In this document: piece after piece, positions 6,351 through 36,595 of the stretch
Layout of the letters: each line of letters starts with the position of its first letter
Position numbering within the stretch: the stretch's first letter is position 1
NCBI GenBank assembly: GCA_035524455.1
Contig: DATKOU010000107.1
Coordinates: 1-44,555, forward strand
Source of the DNA: Thermodesulfovibrionales bacterium
Lineage (GTDB): Bacteria > Nitrospirota > Thermodesulfovibrionia > Thermodesulfovibrionales > UBA9159
Direction of reading: 5' to 3'
Length of the DNA: 44,555 bases
Translations under genes and position numbers: made by a program
Notes under the pieces: generated by a model
The model's input: only the letters and a program-made list of their open reading frames with translations
Database searches by the model: none
Told to the model about the DNA's origin: nothing

Positions 6351-7312
6351 AAGGATGTCTTGATCGTGTTCACAATAGCGTCCGGGGTGAGCCCGTAGAA
6401 CTCCAGCAATTCCTCAGGTTTGCCCGAACGGCCAAAGGTGTCCCCCACCCCAATGCGCCTCACTTTCACCGGGTGTTTTTCTGAAAGGATCTCACTCACC
6501 GCGCTTCCCAGCCCTCCTATTACCGAATGTTCCTCCACAGTAACGATAAGCCCGGATGATTCTGCCGCCCTGAGTACCGCCTCTGCATCGAGGGGTTTAA
6601 TTGTGGAGATATTGATGACCCCCACATCAAGCCCCTCTGATTTCAGTATCTGTCGTGCCTCAAGGGATGCGGAGACCATGATCCCTGTGGCAATGATAGT
6701 TGCGTCCTTTCCCAGGTGAAATATATGTGCCTTGCCCAGCTGAAACCGGTAACTCTCAGGCGTCACCAGGGGCACCTTCATCCTCCCCAGCCTCACATAT
6801 ACAGGCCCTTCATAGTCGGCGATGGAATAGATCACCTGCTCGGTTTCCCTTCCGTCCGCAGGTACGATTACAGTCATATTGGGCAGTACCCTCATGAGGG
6901 CAATATCCATCAGTGCCTGATGGGATGCCCCATCCTCACCCACCGTAATCCCCGCATGTGTGGCAACAAGCTTTACATTGAGATTTGAGTAGCAGATGGT
7001 CTGTCGTATCTGTTCCCATGCCCTTCCTGTCTCAAATACGGCAAACGTGGACGCAAAGGGAAGTTTCCCGGCCAGGGAGAATCCCCCGGCAGTTCCTATC
7101 ATATCCTGCTCTGATATTCCCAGATTGAAGAATCGCTCAGGAAAGGCTTTGGCAAACTTCGCGGTCTTTGTGGAGCCCGAAAGATCTGCATCCAGTACCA
7201 CCACATCGCCCCTCTTTTTCCCGAGCTCCAGAAGGGCAGCGCCATAAGCATCCCGCGTAGCCAATGCCTGGGACGTTCCTCCCGGTGAGGGAGAACCTTT
7301 TCTCTCGCCCAT
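6347..7312 (-). CDS. Transketolase, C-terminal (pyrimidine-binding) subunit
   Basis: Half-size transketolase with the Pyr-binding and C-terminal domains (GISEQDMIGTAGG, HAGITVGEDGASHQ). Overlaps the stop of the N-terminal subunit gene. Confidence 0.9.
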   Translation of the reverse strand: MGERKGSPSPGGTSQALATRDAYGAALLELGKKRGDVVVLDADLSGSTKTAKFAKAFPERFFNLGISEQDMIGTAGGFSLAGKLPFASTFAVFETGRAWEQIRQTICYSNLNVKLVATHAGITVGEDGASHQALMDIALMRVLPNMTVIVPADGRETEQVIYSIADYEGPVYVRLGRMKVPLVTPESYRFQLGKAHIFHLGKDATIIATGIMVSASLEARQILKSEGLDVGVINISTIKPLDAEAVLRAAESSGLIVTVEEHSVIGGLGSAVSEILSEKHPVKVRRIGVGDTFGRSGKPEELLEFYGLTPDAIVNTIKTSL

Positions 7313-8142
7313 TATTTCAGCTCCTCCAATGCTCTGTCCCGCTCTTCCCTTGTGGGTGCAATACCATGATACTCTGCCTTGCCCTCGAAGAAGGACACCC
7401 CCTTCCCCTTCACCGTTCTTGCCACAATCACGCTGGGTCTGCCCTTTACCCTTTCTGCCTCATCCAGGGCATCAACAATCTGCTCCATCGCATGTCCATC
7501 AATGTCCATGACATGCCATCCAAAGGCCTTCCATTTCTCGGTGATGGGCTCGATCTTCATCACATCGCAGCAAAAACCGTCTATCTGTAAACCGTTGTTG
7601 TCCACTATGGCACAAAGATTGTCAATCCCGTAATGGACAGCAGTCATGGCAGCCTCCCATACCTGGCCCTCCTGGAGCTCACCGTCACCCAAAAGACAAT
7701 ATACCCTTGACCCGAGGCCGTCCATCCTCAGGCCCATGGCCATCCCATTGGCAATGGATAACCCTTGTCCAAGGGAGCCTGTGGATATCTCCACCCCTTT
7801 GAGCATCTTCGAACTGGGATGTCCCTGGAGCGGACTGTCAATCCTCCGGAGCGTCTTGAGAAGTTCCCTGTCAAAATATCCGCTAAGGGCGAGGGCCGCA
7901 TAGAGAACCGGAGCTGCATGGCCTTTGGAGAGAACAAACCTGTCCCTCTCTCTCCATTCAGGCTCCTCCGGCCTGTGCCTCATCTTATAAAAGTAGAGCG
8001 CTGCCACAATATCAGCAGCAGAAAGGGAGCCGCCCGTGTGGCCTGATCCCGCCTCGGTGAGCATCTTCACGATCTCTCTCCTCACCTCCTTTGCGCGCTC
8101 GCGCAAAAGACCGACATCCCTTGTAGCTGTGATCCGGCTCAC
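7312..8142 (-). CDS. Transketolase, N-terminal (TPP-binding) subunit
   Basis: GHTGGSLSAADI, SKGHAAP and the TPP motif LLGDGELQEGQVWEA. Confidence 0.9.
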   Translation of the reverse strand: MSRITATRDVGLLRERAKEVRREIVKMLTEAGSGHTGGSLSAADIVAALYFYKMRHRPEEPEWRERDRFVLSKGHAAPVLYAALALSGYFDRELLKTLRRIDSPLQGHPSSKMLKGVEISTGSLGQGLSIANGMAMGLRMDGLGSRVYCLLGDGELQEGQVWEAAMTAVHYGIDNLCAIVDNNGLQIDGFCCDVMKIEPITEKWKAFGWHVMDIDGHAMEQIVDALDEAERVKGRPSVIVARTVKGKGVSFFEGKAEYHGIAPTREERDRALEELK

Positions 8143-8540
8143 CCGTTCTTTACCTTCTTTGAAATATGTTCAAGGAGAATCTCATCAAGGCTCTTGGGAG
8201 CCTTATTCTTGCTCTCGCTCTTCTCCGGCATCACCGCACTCTTCTCCCCAGGCTGGGGAATGGGTTCCTGCTTATCTCCGGGCAGCTTCGCCTCGCCCTT
8301 CCCTGTGAGCAGTTCCTTTATCGCTTCCCTGTGCTGGAGCTTCATAAGGTTCTTGAGCTGTTTTTCGAAATCAGGACTCCCGATAATATGGGCATAACTT
8401 GTCTTGACCGAGCGAAGGATCGCACCCTGGTGATAGAGGAGTGTCACAATGGAATGGCTCTTCAGACCGCTGTCCTCTGTCTGGACATGGTATTGCCTCC
8501 CCTTATGGGAAATATTCGTATTGTAACCGATAAGCATCAA
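8139..8540 (-). CDS. Hypothetical protein with a small N-terminal domain (YHVQTEDSG) and a Lys/Pro/Glu-rich tail
   Basis: The ORF overlaps the transketolase start by 4 nt, so it is probably co-translated. I recognise no catalytic motif. Confidence 0.5.
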   Translation of the reverse strand: MMLIGYNTNISHKGRQYHVQTEDSGLKSHSIVTLLYHQGAILRSVKTSYAHIIGSPDFEKQLKNLMKLQHREAIKELLTGKGEAKLPGDKQEPIPQPGEKSAVMPEKSESKNKAPKSLDEILLEHISKKVKNG

Positions 8541-8658
8541 AACTCTCGCTGCTCAGGGTTATGCAACGCACTGAACCATTACGAGAGATATTATATACTT
8601 CATTCCCCGGGAGATACAAGTGAGAGGAGAATAAGGCCGGAAAGCGTGAAAAACTCCG

Positions 8659-9225
8659 CTACCTCTTTCTTTCGTACCGTTCCATCACATAGAACATGCC
8701 CCCTGCCATGAGATAGACAAAGGCCATCACCACCCAGTGGCTGATGCCCAGGACCGAGGGAATGGTAGCTCCTTCCATGGGTGACGAGAAGTAGAACCCT
8801 TCAATCGCGGGATACACAACCGCAAACACCAGAGATCCTGCCCCTATCCCGCCCATGGTCACCAGGGCGTCCAACCTCCCTGTGGCAAAACCAGCTACCG
8901 CTGTTCCTGGGCAGTACCCGCTGAACAGGAATCCTATGCCGAAGAGCGCCCCTCCCACCAGCTGGGGCCAGAAGAAGGCGGGGACAATCCATATCCTGTT
9001 CATGTCAAGAACCTTGAGGTCCGAAAGGAGATAAAGCCCTGTAGCGGCAACCAGCATTCCGGTAAACATGACCTTGGGGACACTGAAGTCAGTAAGGTAA
9101 AAAACCCCTGTAAGCTTGTGGGGGTCACCCAGACCTCCCCTCTCCAGAAAAAGACCGAAGAAAAAACCGAGGATCACCGCCAGCACAAGGCCTGCGGTAT
9201 GGCTTACCATAAAGGGTGCGCTCAT
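8659..9225 (-). CDS. YeeE/YedE-family sulfur-compound transport protein, second half-size subunit
   Basis: Multi-TM protein with the family Cys motif SGYCPGTAVAG. The start chosen at 9225 forms an ATGA overlap with the upstream gene's stop and has AGGAGG 8 nt upstream. The longer track ORF would overlap the upstream gene by 124 nt. Confidence 0.8.
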   Translation of the reverse strand: MSAPFMVSHTAGLVLAVILGFFFGLFLERGGLGDPHKLTGVFYLTDFSVPKVMFTGMLVAATGLYLLSDLKVLDMNRIWIVPAFFWPQLVGGALFGIGFLFSGYCPGTAVAGFATGRLDALVTMGGIGAGSLVFAVVYPAIEGFYFSSPMEGATIPSVLGISHWVVMAFVYLMAGGMFYVMERYERKR

Positions 9226-9731
9226 GACCATAACCTCCTGAACAATGCCGCGGCAGCAAAGCCGCCCACAAACATTGCGATTACAAAAACCCAGCCAGCT
9301 ATTGCGAGCTGAGCCCCTCCTGACAGTGCCACCCCGCTGGTGCATCCCCTTGCAAGCCTGCTCGCAAAGCCTATAAGGATACCCCCTCCAAACGCGCTCA
9401 TCAGCCTTGTTCCAGTACTCATATGCTCAGCCTTATCGAATCTCACCCTGAAGTTTCCGCCTGCAACGGATCCCACAAGGGCACCCACGAAAAGTCCCAT
9501 GATCTCAAAAAGCACCCAGTTCAGTAGCGGTGCTTCAACATTCAGATATTGAGAAAAATAGGTTATTTTGTGGGCGTATGCCGGACTGAGTTTGTCCAGA
9601 CCGACCCCTGTTAGGAGAGAAAAGGCACTGGAAGCGCCCAGACCCCATCCCACGATAACAAAGGTTGCGAGGAGCGTTAAGCCGAGACCTGCCCCTGCTA
9701 TATAAGGTGACCAGAAATTATCATTTTTCAT
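9222..9731 (-). CDS. YeeE/YedE-family sulfur-compound transport protein, first half-size subunit
   Basis: Multi-TM protein with the family Cys motif LARGCTSGVALSGG. I chose the start at the third in-frame ATG (9731), which has GGAGG 5 nt upstream. Confidence 0.8.
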   Translation of the reverse strand: MKNDNFWSPYIAGAGLGLTLLATFVIVGWGLGASSAFSLLTGVGLDKLSPAYAHKITYFSQYLNVEAPLLNWVLFEIMGLFVGALVGSVAGGNFRVRFDKAEHMSTGTRLMSAFGGGILIGFASRLARGCTSGVALSGGAQLAIAGWVFVIAMFVGGFAAAALFRRLWS

Positions 9732-9949
9732 ACCAACCTCCATAGAGTCCACTGACCCCTCTTATGCTGTATCTCTTCTTTGCTACCACCTTAGTATCCT
9801 CACACAGCCTCAGAGTTGCTTTGTTGCTAAACTTACTAACCATTTTACAATTATATCACTGAAAAATCGACAACACAACACCAAGATAATATCAGGAGAG
9901 GGGATGATAGGAAAAGGACAAGTTATGGCTTTCGGGAAGGGAGACAAGT

Positions 9950-9973
9950 GAGAGGGGACATTGTCCCCCTCTC
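9950..9973 (-). terminator. GC-rich stem-loop 4 nt after the outer-membrane-protein stop codon (possible terminator or mRNA stabilizer)
   Basis: GAGAGGGGAC / GTCCCCCTCTC gives a 10-bp stem with one bulged C and a 3-nt loop. No clear U-tract follows, so intrinsic termination is uncertain. Confidence 0.4.
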
Positions 9974-9977
9974 ATCC

Positions 9978-11243
9978 TTAGAATCTCCAGGTGAATCCGA
10001 ATTCGAGGCTGTCCTCATAGAGACTAGATTTAAGGGTCACCGGCTGTCCCGCAAAATTCGTACCGCTTTCACTGATGTCCTCTTTGAAGGCATGGGTGTA
10101 CCCGGCATTCACCGCAAACCGCTTTGAGATTTCATATCCGGCTCCAAAGGTGATATGCTGCTTGACGATGGCAGGGAATCCTATTATTCTGAAGGTTTCA
10201 TAATAGTAGGTCGGCATGTTATTTCCCTGAACGGAAATCATGTTAGGACCTGCTGGGGTGAGGCCCACGAAATTGCTATGTTCCCTCACAGGGTTGTTCG
10301 CATAGTTATATCCGATGCGCAGGGCAAGTGGCTTGATGGGTTTGTACTGTGCGCCGATTCCAAACACCCACTGGTCCTTCCAGTCGAAATCGTCATAGCC
10401 CTTGGCGTTTGCCCAGTTTATCCACTTTCCATTGACCTCCACCAGCAGCGTGTCCTTAATAGGCTCAACAGCTATTCCAAGCCCTATCTGCTGAGGGGAT
10501 GCAAGCTTCAGGCTCCCCACAGTACCGCCAAGATTAAGGACATTCTTATAATTGACCTCCTGTGGTGTCACATAGGTAAGGCCGAGGGAGAGCATATCCA
10601 AGGGCTTGTACAATGCCCCCAGTTGGACCCCAACACCGTAATTAAAGGAAGTGCCGCTTCCCAGGTCGAGGCTAGAATAGTCGATTTGAAGGTTAAGGCC
10701 GAAAGAGAGGTTTGGATTGACCGCATAGGCAATAGACGGGGCAAATTTCATTGCCTGGAGCTGGGTATATGAGCCCGCAATAAGGGGAGTTCCCGCAGGA
10801 AATGGCGGTGCGGGAAATGTGCCGGCGAGACCCGTGTTCCTGTAGTCAACGCCAAGGCCTGATACGCCGTAGGCTGAAAGTCCGAATCTCCAGTCAGTCG
10901 TGATCGGGACTGACAGACCGATGGCAGGTATCGCATAAACCTTCTTGTCACTGTCCGCGTTTACGGTCTGGCCGGAGGTCGTCACCGAACCGGTCACATT
11001 GGGCATGAACAGAGTTCCCGCAAAATTCACTTCGCTCCCCGGACAGTAAGGGCCAAAACACATGGCAGCAGGATTGGCAAAGACTGCGCTGATTGCATCC
11101 TGAGGAGCGGCGATACCCACCCCTCCCATGCCCCTCGAAATGGGACCGATACCGATAAGATTGTCACCGTTTGTCGCCATGGCCGGAGGCGTCACGACTG
11201 CGACCATCACTAATACCAGAAGCAACAAAAACAATTTTCGCAT
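9978..11243 (-). CDS. FadL/TodX-family outer-membrane channel for hydrophobic compounds
   Basis: Signal peptide ending AMA. N-terminal hatch-like segment GIGPISRGMGGVGIAAPQDAISAVFANPAAM. Alternating beta-strand pattern and a terminal ...FGFTWRF aromatic residue. GGAGGGAG SD. Confidence 0.8.
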   Translation of the reverse strand: MRKLFLLLLVLVMVAVVTPPAMATNGDNLIGIGPISRGMGGVGIAAPQDAISAVFANPAAMCFGPYCPGSEVNFAGTLFMPNVTGSVTTSGQTVNADSDKKVYAIPAIGLSVPITTDWRFGLSAYGVSGLGVDYRNTGLAGTFPAPPFPAGTPLIAGSYTQLQAMKFAPSIAYAVNPNLSFGLNLQIDYSSLDLGSGTSFNYGVGVQLGALYKPLDMLSLGLTYVTPQEVNYKNVLNLGGTVGSLKLASPQQIGLGIAVEPIKDTLLVEVNGKWINWANAKGYDDFDWKDQWVFGIGAQYKPIKPLALRIGYNYANNPVREHSNFVGLTPAGPNMISVQGNNMPTYYYETFRIIGFPAIVKQHITFGAGYEISKRFAVNAGYTHAFKEDISESGTNFAGQPVTLKSSLYEDSLEFGFTWRF

Positions 11244-11411
11244 TACTCCCTCCTTTTCATCCTTGATTTCTTGCCGCTTACTCCCTCAGCTTCCTTCTTC
11301 TCGATCGATTCTCCCCCCACCTCCTCTCCGCGAATAGCCACCCTATTTGAGATTGGCATTCACCATATCAACGATTTCATCCTGAATCTGACCAGGCATT
11401 GCTCCTTTTGA

Positions 11412-11651
11412 CTATTTCACTTTCTTAATCAGAAAGCTGAAGACATTATCTTTTTCATCCATCTCAACAAGTTCATTTCCCGTCCTTCTAAGCATGGCGG
11501 GGATGTCTGCCTTCGACCCTTTGTCCGTCACCTCAACAAGAAGGACCTGCCCTGGCTGCAGGGAATCCAGCGCCTTCTTTGTCTTTAGCACAGGCATCGG
11601 ACACGCGAGCCCTTTCAGGTCGACGGCTAAGTTCGCTTTTGACTTATCCAC
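11412..11651 (-). CDS. tusA: TusA/SirA-family sulfurtransferase
   Basis: 79 aa with the diagnostic LKGLACPMPVLKTKKAL (CPxP) active-site motif. GTG start with AGAGGTGAG upstream. Confidence 0.85.
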   Translation of the reverse strand: MDKSKANLAVDLKGLACPMPVLKTKKALDSLQPGQVLLVEVTDKGSKADIPAMLRRTGNELVEMDEKDNVFSFLIKKVK

Positions 11652-11700
11652 AGTATCTCACCTCTCTTTTCCTCCTTAATTTTTCCTGAGTTTCGGCGAA

Positions 11701-12180
11701 TCAAATAAACAGGCTTATATTTGCATCAAGTGCAAAATCCAGGAACTCAGCAGCCCCCGCCACCTCAACCCCCTCAACGAGGTCCTCCTTGGACAGCCCT
11801 GTCATCTCCAGGGTTGGAGTACACGCGATCATCTTCACCCCGGACTCTAAACAGACATGCAGGAGCTCGGGGATCGTAGGCCAGTTGATTTTCTTGATCA
11901 TGCCCTTCATCATCATCGTGGCCATGCCGGTCATTCCAGGCAGCACGCCAAGGATGTTCGGGAATGGAACAGGGGAAGGCATTGCAGGGTTTGCGATGGG
12001 GGCAACCTGAAGAGAATGGTATTTTTTCTTGTTCACGATGTCCACACCATAGAGGGTAAAAAATATCTCCACCTCCACATCCATGGCCACTGCAGTAGAT
12101 GCAAGGATTAACGGGGGATATGCCATGTCAAGAGTTCCTTTTGATGCAATAAGTGCCATTCGCTTTTTCTTCTCTTCCAT
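11701..12180 (-). CDS. DsrE/DsrF-like sulfur-relay family protein (DsrE2/DsrE3-like)
   Basis: 159 aa. N-terminal MALIASKGTLDMAYPPLILASTA... and a conserved Cys in MIACTPT. First gene of the operon, directly upstream of tusA. Confidence 0.75.
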   Translation of the reverse strand: MEEKKKRMALIASKGTLDMAYPPLILASTAVAMDVEVEIFFTLYGVDIVNKKKYHSLQVAPIANPAMPSPVPFPNILGVLPGMTGMATMMMKGMIKKINWPTIPELLHVCLESGVKMIACTPTLEMTGLSKEDLVEGVEVAGAAEFLDFALDANISLFI

Positions 12181-12213
12181 ATTTTCACCTCCGATAGTTA
12201 CACGTTATCGTAA

Positions 12214-12242
12214 AGTATAGTGAAGTCAGAGGGGCTTGTCAA
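12214..12242 (-). promoter_or_regulatory. Near-consensus sigma70 promoter for the dsrE-like/tusA/OMP/yeeE operon
   Basis: The minus strand reads TTGACA, a 17-nt spacer, then TATACT. A GGAGGT SD and the dsrE-like ATG follow about 30 nt downstream. Confidence 0.55.
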
Positions 12243-36259: not shown

Positions 36260-36595
36260 ATGCCTACGATGGATTTTCGGGGAAAGCAGATCGAGATAGA
36301 TGGGGAAGGTTACATCGCCAATCCCGATGAATGGAGCAAGGAACTCGCTGAGCACATAGCGAAGATAGAAGGCATCGAAATGACTTTTGATCACTGGGAC
36401 GTTGTCAATTTCCTCAGAGACTATTACCGGAAATATCAGATCGCTCCTATGATAAAGATGCTGGTAAAGGAGATCGGAAAGGTCAAGGGGTCGGAGAAGG
36501 GGAATACGAGGTATCTTTATCAACTCTATCCGGGGGGTCCTGCAAAGCAGGCATGTAAGATTGCCGGACTTCCAACGCCGACGGGATGTGTATAA
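36260..36595 (+). CDS. dsrC: DsrC (TusE/DsrC/DsvC family), canonical two-cysteine type
   Basis: 111 aa from the internal ATG, which has an AAAGGAGAAG SD. The C-terminal arm ...ACKIAGLPTPTGCV has both the penultimate Cys and the Cys 11 residues upstream. Confidence 0.9.
   Translation: MPTMDFRGKQIEIDGEGYIANPDEWSKELAEHIAKIEGIEMTFDHWDVVNFLRDYYRKYQIAPMIKMLVKEIGKVKGSEKGNTRYLYQLYPGGPAKQACKIAGLPTPTGCV

Follow-up and report, generated by a model that had tools for sequence, protein, structure and literature searches.

The genomic link between FadL-type outer-membrane channels and sulfur-relay genes is real and broad. We examined it from a 44,555-nucleotide stretch of DNA of a Thermodesulfovibrionales bacterium (Nitrospirota; metagenome-assembled genome GCA_035524455.1, contig DATKOU010000107.1; the whole stretch is hereafter the window), in which a gene for a FadL/TodX-family β-barrel follows genes for a DsrE2-family protein and TusA and precedes two half-size genes of the YeeE/YedE family. 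An initial annotation, made from the sequence of the window, had placed the barrel with the sulfur-relay genes, and conserved synteny, a reciprocal link, and a FadL fold uphold that placement. What is new here, judging from gene content and order, is that FadL-family channels of two lineages, one with a cysteine-bearing hatch, appear to have been recruited into a conserved module centered on DsrE2 and TusA. The barrel is probably functionally coupled to the sulfur carriers.

Sulfur-relay genes adjoin the barrel gene in two phyla

When one genome per species was scanned, an orthologue of the barrel (54–74% identity) turned up at 80 loci, nearly all in metagenome-assembled genomes labelled Nitrospirota or Thermodesulfobacteriota (formerly delta-proteobacteria). 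Neighbors were sought among six-frame open reading frames and in raw DNA, with the proteins of the window and those of the first related locus as queries. In 63 of the 80 loci, DsrE2, TusA, YeeE, or a DsrMK-like pair (a membrane anchor and a DsrK-like protein) is encoded within 6 kb of the barrel gene, and in 57 of these 63 linked loci the neighbor is DsrE2, TusA, or YeeE itself. The genes are organized in at least five arrangements in two phyla, which vary with the clade in the barrel tree (OMP, the outer-membrane barrel):

Type A: DsrE2-TusA-(DUF302)-OMP-YeeEa-YeeEb; the window, L005–L007, L012, and L028
Type A': DsrE2-OMP; several Nitrospirota
Type B: MarR-DsrE2-TusA-membrane anchor-DsrK-like-OMP; ~40 Desulfobacterota, the dominant type
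Type C: MarR-OMP-DsrE2; seven or eight loci
Type D: DsrE2 and TusA divergent from OMP; L047 and L064

The DsrE2 proteins of types B and C are 28–36% identical to that of the window, while the barrels are 55–62% identical. Because the partners are divergent while the barrels are alike, the link is not one inherited operon and has been kept or re-made across partners. Unsupervised clustering of neighbors within 5 kb recovered DsrE2, TusA, MarR, the DsrMK-like pair, YeeE, and Nitrospirota housekeeping flanks as recurrent, and a targeted search afterwards added a DUF302-like protein to the recurrent partners.

The extra genes of type B clusters (5937–7904 in L001; ~40 loci, e.g., L020, L023, and L026) encode a TmcC/NarI-like membrane anchor and a DsrK/TmcB/HmcF-like protein with iron-sulfur/CCG features that scores 261 bits against a cutoff of 400 on the NCBIfam DsrK model. 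Together they form a DsrMK-like module, which could couple protein-bound sulfur with the quinone pool. The MarR proteins heading clusters (L001 4521–5000, L126 5470–5952, and 38 other loci) have adjacent cysteines in 40 of 40 cases and a third cysteine in 36 of 40, which suggests a plausible thiol- or persulfide-based sensor. There is no MarR gene at the cluster in the window.

In Ca. Sulfobium and relatives (L002, L003, L014, L016, L018, and L022), a lone Cys-hatch barrel gene occupies a fixed housekeeping neighborhood: rplI-dnaB is upstream, and genes for a peptidase M50 and a radical-SAM protein follow downstream. In a sister clade of this group, DsrE2 is directly upstream of the barrel gene, apparently inserted at the same site.

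The link is reciprocal and extends to a second barrel lineage

The initial annotation had suggested a test of whether the adjacency recurs across genomes; it does, and in the reverse direction as well. Among metagenome contigs scanned with the window DsrE2, 26 orthologues (at least 71% identity) had enough downstream DNA, and a FadL-family barrel follows DsrE2 in 22 of them. None of the DsrE2 homologues at 55–62% identity in the same metagenome scan is followed by a barrel. Many of these homologues belong to tandem DsrE2-TusA-DsrE2(-TusA) arrays, as on six contigs (L160, L164, L167, and L171–L173) in which the first DsrE2 is 60–61% identical to that of the window and no barrel is nearby.

In many of the loci from the reverse scan, the slot after tusA is filled by a second FadL lineage (L126, L127, L131, L133, L134, L137, L097, L099, and others). 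This barrel matches PF03349 over its full length (94 bits), is 24% identical to that of the window, and has no cysteines. In second-lineage loci on marine-sediment contigs, the barrel gene comes after a Cys-containing MarR gene and a split YeeE pair that is transcribed divergently, and before a gene for a DUF302-like secreted protein (in L126, barrel at 6894–8192 and secreted protein at 8327–9265); the secreted protein of this lineage is homologous to the DUF302 protein described below (23% identity, E 5e-9). That two FadL lineages occupy the same slot strongly indicates a need for a FadL-type channel as such at this position.

As a control for specificity (n = 2 only), the two nearest Cys-free relatives with genomic context have no sulfur genes and are in aromatic-degradation settings. 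One (L087) is beside benzoyl-CoA-reductase/2-hydroxyglutaryl-CoA-dehydratase-type genes and the other (L088) beside a phenol-degradation outer-membrane protein, surroundings that are usual for the FadL family. No sulfur genes were seen near three Cys-variant relatives (P0122, P0123, and P0135), but their contigs are short and hardly informative.

The barrel has a FadL fold and a cysteine pair in its hatch

The barrel protein consists of a signal peptide (residues 1–23), a hatch (~24–70, with an NPA motif followed by C62 and C67), and a barrel (71–420). In a profile search of the PDB with close homologues, the matches were TodX (1.6e-16), CymD (1e-12), and TbuX (6e-10). A first AlphaFold2 model from 27 close homologues had a predicted local distance difference test score (pLDDT) below 50 in the hatch and is left out of statements on that domain. 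It is replaced by a second model from 130 diverse sequences, down to ~27% identity, with a pLDDT of 93.3, a predicted template-modelling score (pTM) of 0.88, and a pLDDT of 85–96 in the hatch (31–70). This model has 14 transmembrane strands within residues 71–420 and a long extracellular loop with a helix. Its second strand is interrupted over five residues (98–102), ahead of a conserved IPAIG, where a strand kink might open the barrel wall laterally. In Foldseek, FadL of Escherichia coli is the best structural match to the model (E 7e-24, TM 0.69–0.71), and TodX matches with a TM of 0.67. The initial annotation had suggested looking for 14 strands and a hatch in a predicted structure, and the model has both. 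That annotation had also allowed that close characterized relatives in matching catabolic settings would count against a sulfur role. The solved relatives (TodX, CymD, TbuX, and FadL) are remote, at 14–20% identity, and aromatic contexts were seen only for Cys-free paralogues.

Among 130 family members, at least 90% keep the NPA motif (N57-P58-A59), which aligns with that of TodX. Directly behind it is a C-x4-C pair, in the hatch motif NPAAMCFGPYCP. Of 85 loci, 82 carry this motif, as do 119 of 120 database homologues, whereas TodX in the alignment and relatives below ~47% identity lack it. Mature barrel proteins often have no cysteine beyond this pair. Among cluster representatives, the pair is kept, with variant spacers, to ~50% identity, with one outlier at 44%; it is missing in most relatives below ~50% and in some nearer ones, and in P0124 both cysteines are replaced by serine. 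On a single short contig (L091), the gene after that of a Cys-variant barrel with a CISPAC hatch encodes a lipoprotein (1434–1790) bearing a thioredoxin-like CHKC motif, which hints that hatch cysteines are possibly redox-serviced in the periplasm.

Organization of the locus in the window

The features of the locus, all on the minus strand, are as follows:

12242..12214, minus: sigma-70-type promoter TTGACA-17-TATACT, 5' of dsrE2; 11 of 12 consensus positions
12180..11701, minus: dsrE2-like gene; 159 aa; PF13686 (DrsE_2), E 3e-45
11651..11412, minus: tusA; 79 aa; PF01206, E 4e-26; Cys17 in CPMP
11399..11343, minus: remnant of a DUF302 gene; 18 codons, MPGQIQDEIVDMVNANLK*
11243..9978, minus: FadL/TodX-family barrel (OMP) gene; 421 aa; PF03349, 86.7 bits against a cutoff of 29.7
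11174..11034, minus: coding region of the hatch domain (aa 24–70); motif NPAAMCFGPYCP; Cys codons at 11060–11058 and 11045–11043
9973..9950, minus: hairpin after the OMP gene; GC-rich; position kept in L005, L006, L007, and L012
9858..9850, minus: extended −10 element TGATATAAT before the yeeE pair; read from the sequence and the alignment of loci
9731..9222, minus: YeeE/YedE half A; 169 aa; PF04143; GCTSG
9225..8659, minus: YeeE/YedE half B; 188 aa; PF04143 and DUF6691; YCPG

The five co-directional genes listed by the initial annotation are thus confirmed, each with a family match, as are the CPxP motif of TusA, the cysteine motifs of the two YeeE/YedE halves (GCTSG and YCPG), and the promoter, both hexamers of which are kept in L005, L006, L028, L094, and L095. 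A TTGAC direct repeat (TTGACA...TTGACTTC) spans the spacer of this promoter; in the window and the same five loci it may serve to bind a regulator at a site that overlaps the promoter. Apart from dsrE2, tusA, the DUF302 remnant, the OMP gene, and the pair of yeeE halves, no gene lies between the promoter and the end of yeeE. Housekeeping genes flank the locus, with queC upstream and a 133-aa gene and transketolase downstream. The 133-aa protein (window 8139–8540, minus) belongs to a conserved 129–133-aa family (MLIGYNTN...YHVQTEDSG...; also L006 12370–12759) for which Pfam gave no match. Its stop codon overlaps the start of the gene for the transketolase N-terminal subunit, and it is therefore part of the downstream unit and outside the sulfur cluster.

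The initial annotation also treated the five genes as a single operon behind one promoter. The upstream promoter is conserved, but features of the ~245-bp gap between the OMP and yeeE genes argue against one transcript, and the claim was overstated. Directly 3' of the OMP stop codon is the conserved hairpin, without a T-run, which may be a terminator or a transcript-stabilizing element. Its fold energy (−19.1 kcal/mol, z = −0.86) is not exceptional, and we therefore put weight on its conserved position only. The extended −10 element is ~90 bp past the hairpin, and a TATAAT/TATAGT-like element aligns with it in L005, L006, L007, and L012. It was missed by a consensus promoter scan because the −35 hexamer is weak. 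Downstream of it is a GCAAC-N-GCAAC-like motif (9828..9813, minus), partly conserved in the same four loci, that may be an operator or an element of the 5' untranslated region. A scan of the whole window with Rfam at the gathering threshold found nothing, so the two long intergenic gaps are not explained by a riboswitch or known RNA.

The other long gap, between tusA and the OMP gene, is 168 bp and has an 18-codon open reading frame behind a good ribosome-binding site just after tusA. Its product, MPGQIQDEIVDMVNANLK*, matches the C-terminus of a secreted 322-aa DUF302 protein of L006 (8468–9436; ...MRMPGQIQDEIVEMVTANLK*). An intact DUF302 gene is between the tusA and barrel genes in L006, L028, L097, L098, L100, and L102. 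Since the remnant matches the C-terminal end of a protein encoded intact at the same slot elsewhere, the gene was deleted in the lineage of the window.

Half A of YeeE starts at an ATG at 9731 (alternative GTG at 9752), has a single cysteine (Cys130 in RGCTSG), and aligns to the C-terminal half of the PF04143 profile (E 1.3e-20). The start codon of half B and the stop codon of half A share an ATGA. Half B aligns to the N-terminal half of the same profile (E 6.6e-14) and to DUF6691, and also has a single cysteine (Cys105 in GYCPGT); in L085, gene callers give the same 188-aa product. The halves are two separate genes and, at 21–47 bits (45–47 bits for TsuA) against cutoffs of 400–645, do not reach equivalog level on the NCBIfam TsuA/YeeE models. 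Against the YedE/FdhT model they score 43 and 27 bits, below the curated cutoffs.

TusA and proteins of the DsrE type use cysteines to carry sulfane sulfur. The DsrE2-family protein of the window is cytoplasmic, without a signal peptide, and its active-site Cys120 is within IACTP. It scores 174.2 bits against a cutoff of 210 on the NCBIfam DsrE2 equivalog (NF047629) and so does not reach it, while membership in the broader PF13686 holds. The active-site cysteine is invariant in all 50 DsrE2 neighbors of the OMP, and the cysteine of CPMP in all 42 TusA neighbors.

DsrC was named in the initial annotation as the end of the relay. The dsrC gene at 36260–36595 (plus strand) is genuine (TIGR03342, 154 bits against a cutoff of 53.5; C-terminal CKIAGLPTPTGCV), but it is a solitary gene among unrelated genes, 24 kb from the cluster and unlinked to it, and a hand-off to DsrC would rest on that gene only.

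Proposed function and alternative explanations

FadL-type channels move hydrophobic molecules through the outer membrane, and their lateral diffusion is passive. The locus may well be a compact envelope module for poorly soluble, uncharged sulfur, with S8 or short polysulfanes as the presumed substrate. The FadL-family barrel would pass a hydrophobic sulfur species through the lipopolysaccharide barrier, as FadL, TodX, and CymD do with fatty acids and aromatics. The secreted DUF302 protein, ancestrally encoded between tusA and the barrel and lost in the genome of the window, would act in the periplasm. The two half-size YeeE/YedE proteins would make up one inner-membrane transporter, with one conserved cysteine from each half, and TusA and DsrE2 would capture cytoplasmic sulfur as persulfide and pass it to dissimilatory or biosynthetic sulfur metabolism. 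Of this picture, our data show the family membership of every protein, the fold of barrel and hatch, and the conserved genomic coupling of FadL-type barrels to DsrE2 and TusA; the substrate, the direction of transport, any chemical role of the hatch cysteine pair, and the link to DsrC are inferred.

A more specific version bears on two points in the literature. The outer-membrane entry of sulfur species in disproportionators was described as "yet to be identified" in a 2026 proteomic paper (PMC13490349), and thiol-bearing outer-membrane components have been invoked for mobilization of elemental sulfur (S0) (PMC8780430). It is conceivable, though doubtful, that FadL barrels are the gate through which elemental sulfur crosses the outer membrane of Dsr-type anaerobes of the Nitrospirota and Desulfobacterota, and that the Cys-hatch pair opens S8 or carries polysulfane to periplasmic or inner-membrane partners. 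If so, the Cys-hatch barrel would be a tentative candidate for the postulated thiol-bearing outer-membrane protein of S0 mobilization.

Several observations weigh against the main reading, an envelope module for poorly soluble sulfur. Seventeen of the 80 orthologues have no sulfur genes nearby (in four of these loci the sequence ends no more than ~400 bp from the barrel), and the barrel is therefore able to function, or at least persist, uncoupled; the Ca. Sulfobium clade, for example, keeps it between rplI/dnaB and the peptidase M50 gene without sulfur genes. Since arrangement tracks phylogeny, the linked loci, 63 in number, did not each arise independently. Many linked clusters, those of types B and C, are without any YeeE, so that the full path from OMP to YeeE is not general. 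The second barrel lineage is Cys-free, so the hatch cysteine pair is not required for the association, and the pair may be a structural disulfide. Lastly, the TusA of the window scores 48.5 bits on the NCBIfam TusA model and 43.7 bits on that of the selenium-linked YedF, both below cutoff.

The substrate could instead be a hydrophobic organosulfur compound, such as organic polysulfanes, thiols, or thiophene-like molecules, or the role could be in stress or detoxification, rather than in use of inorganic S0. The barrel would admit the compound, TusA and DsrE2 would strip or buffer its sulfane sulfur, and the Cys-MarR of related clusters would be the repressor. MarR regulators typically answer to aromatic or thiol-reactive compounds, and here they head the majority architecture with an invariant pair of cysteines; moreover, the characterized family members (TodX, CymD, TbuX, and FadL) carry organic hydrophobics and close Cys-free paralogues are in aromatic-degradation contexts. 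We nevertheless consider this rather unlikely, as the clustering of neighbors recovered no recurrent catabolic enzymes for an organic skeleton near the barrel, and the DsrK/TmcB-like protein and membrane anchor of type B point to a respiratory-type sulfur redox chemistry. Entry could also be the wrong direction. An outward channel that releases zero-valent sulfur made in the envelope by sulfide oxidation or disproportionation would avoid a build-up of S0, and passive lateral diffusion would let the concentration gradient set the direction. The carriers are Dsr-type anaerobes (dsrC is in the window), and relatives of carrier lineages have been discussed as reversible sulfur oxidizers (PMC13293266). 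Sequence does not indicate direction; the window pairs the barrel with YeeE/YedE-type proteins, whose characterized members import thiosulfate, and we judge export to be unlikely.

Two further explanations set aside a role in sulfur metabolism. If the barrel were a general channel for hydrophobic nutrients such as fatty acids or hydrocarbons, its position among sulfur genes would be without functional meaning, in keeping with the unlinked orthologues and the fixed housekeeping neighborhood in some Nitrospirota. This is already disfavored and seems quite unlikely: adjacency is found in at least five arrangements, in two phyla, and from the DsrE2 side as well, it persists where the barrel comes from another FadL lineage, and the clustering of neighbors recovered no recurrent fad or aromatic-catabolic genes. 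A module for selenium or tellurium is very improbable. YedE/YedF-type proteins are tied to selenium metabolism, and, as given above, the TusA of the window scores on the YedF model and the YeeE halves on the YedE/FdhT model, all below curated cutoffs. However, DsrE2, the DsrK-like protein, and the membrane anchor belong to sulfur-metabolism families, and selD, selA, and selB do not recur beside the barrel, with one isolated selB in L004.

Implications

S8 hardly dissolves in water, and hydrophobic molecules are kept out by the lipopolysaccharide layer. How cells gain access to elemental sulfur is an old question of sulfur microbiology, for which this barrel family is a concrete candidate. One barrel lineage has a recognizable signature in NPAAMCFGPYCP, and the partner set is conserved: DsrE2, TusA, the DUF302 secreted protein, split YeeE, the Cys-containing MarR, and the DsrMK-like pair. 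Dozens of genomes carry the module. Outer-membrane sulfur entry thereby becomes testable. We caution that such barrels should not be annotated as "long-chain fatty acid transport proteins". The findings also set a DsrE2-based module apart from the cluster of YedE, TusA, and DsrEFH type II (YTD) that now serves as a marker in surveys of metagenomes.

Comparison with known systems

The window barrel resembles FadL, TodX, TbuX, and CymD (PF03349) in its above-threshold Pfam match, 14 strands, N-terminal hatch, and NPA motif. It differs in the near-invariant C-x4-C pair after NPA, which TodX lacks, and in having sulfur-carrier neighbors. It is not beside fad or aromatic-catabolic genes.

YeeE/TsuA proteins import thiosulfate with a TusA-like partner. 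The locus is like the TsuA/TsuB (YeeE/YeeD) system in having a YeeE-family membrane protein with a cysteine in each pseudo-repeat and a TusA-like partner, whereas its YeeE is split in two and its TusA reaches only 16 bits against a cutoff of 147.5 on the YeeD/TsuB model.

Stockdreher et al. 2014 reportedly described the rhd-tusA-dsrE2 sulfur-relay cluster of Allochromatium vinosum. That cluster and the DsrE/TusA sets of sHdr systems (see also PMC4175335 and PMC11094781) share with the window a TusA beside DsrE2 and conserved active-site cysteines. The window differs from both in that it has no rhodanese, sHdr, or Lbp genes and no DsrEFH, its DsrE2 is below the equivalog cutoff, and it has an outer-membrane component.

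The label YTD, which the initial annotation had brought in, does not fit. The canonical cluster is YedE-TusA-DsrEFH type II (PMC13293266), whereas the cluster in the window has a single DsrE2-family gene, no DsrF/H-like genes, and no DsrEFH type II. There are likenesses in the gene families (YeeE/YedE-type, TusA, and DsrE-superfamily genes) and the phyla (Nitrospirota and Desulfobacterota), and a YedE-related gene and tusA are adjacent in the window, though with the barrel gene between them and YeeE split. The differences are the single PF13686 DsrE2, the split YeeE, the FadL-type barrel, and the ancestral DUF302 protein; no FadL-type barrel is mentioned in the literature on the YTD cluster that we examined. 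We also considered the extra genes of type B as counterparts of the conserved hypothetical proteins of YTD clusters and rejected this, because the former are TmcC/NarI-like and DsrK/TmcB/HmcF-like whereas the latter are read as DsrF/H-like (PMC13293266).

A connection between FadL and sulfur is not a wholly new idea. In the open-access literature linking FadL to TusA, DsrE, polysulfide, or elemental sulfur, a Chlorobaculum tepidum preprint alone was relevant, an absence of others that is not proof. In 2017, CT2230, a FadL homologue in the sulfide-repressed regulon of that species, was proposed to move hydrophobic sulfur chains (bioRxiv 10.1101/172254), and this precedent is itself an unproven proposal. 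C. tepidum belongs to another phylum, the sole co-transcribed partner of CT2230 is a hypothetical gene, and no sulfur-carrier neighbors were reported. The proposal for CT2230 was argued from regulation, whereas the case for the barrel of the window is built on synteny.

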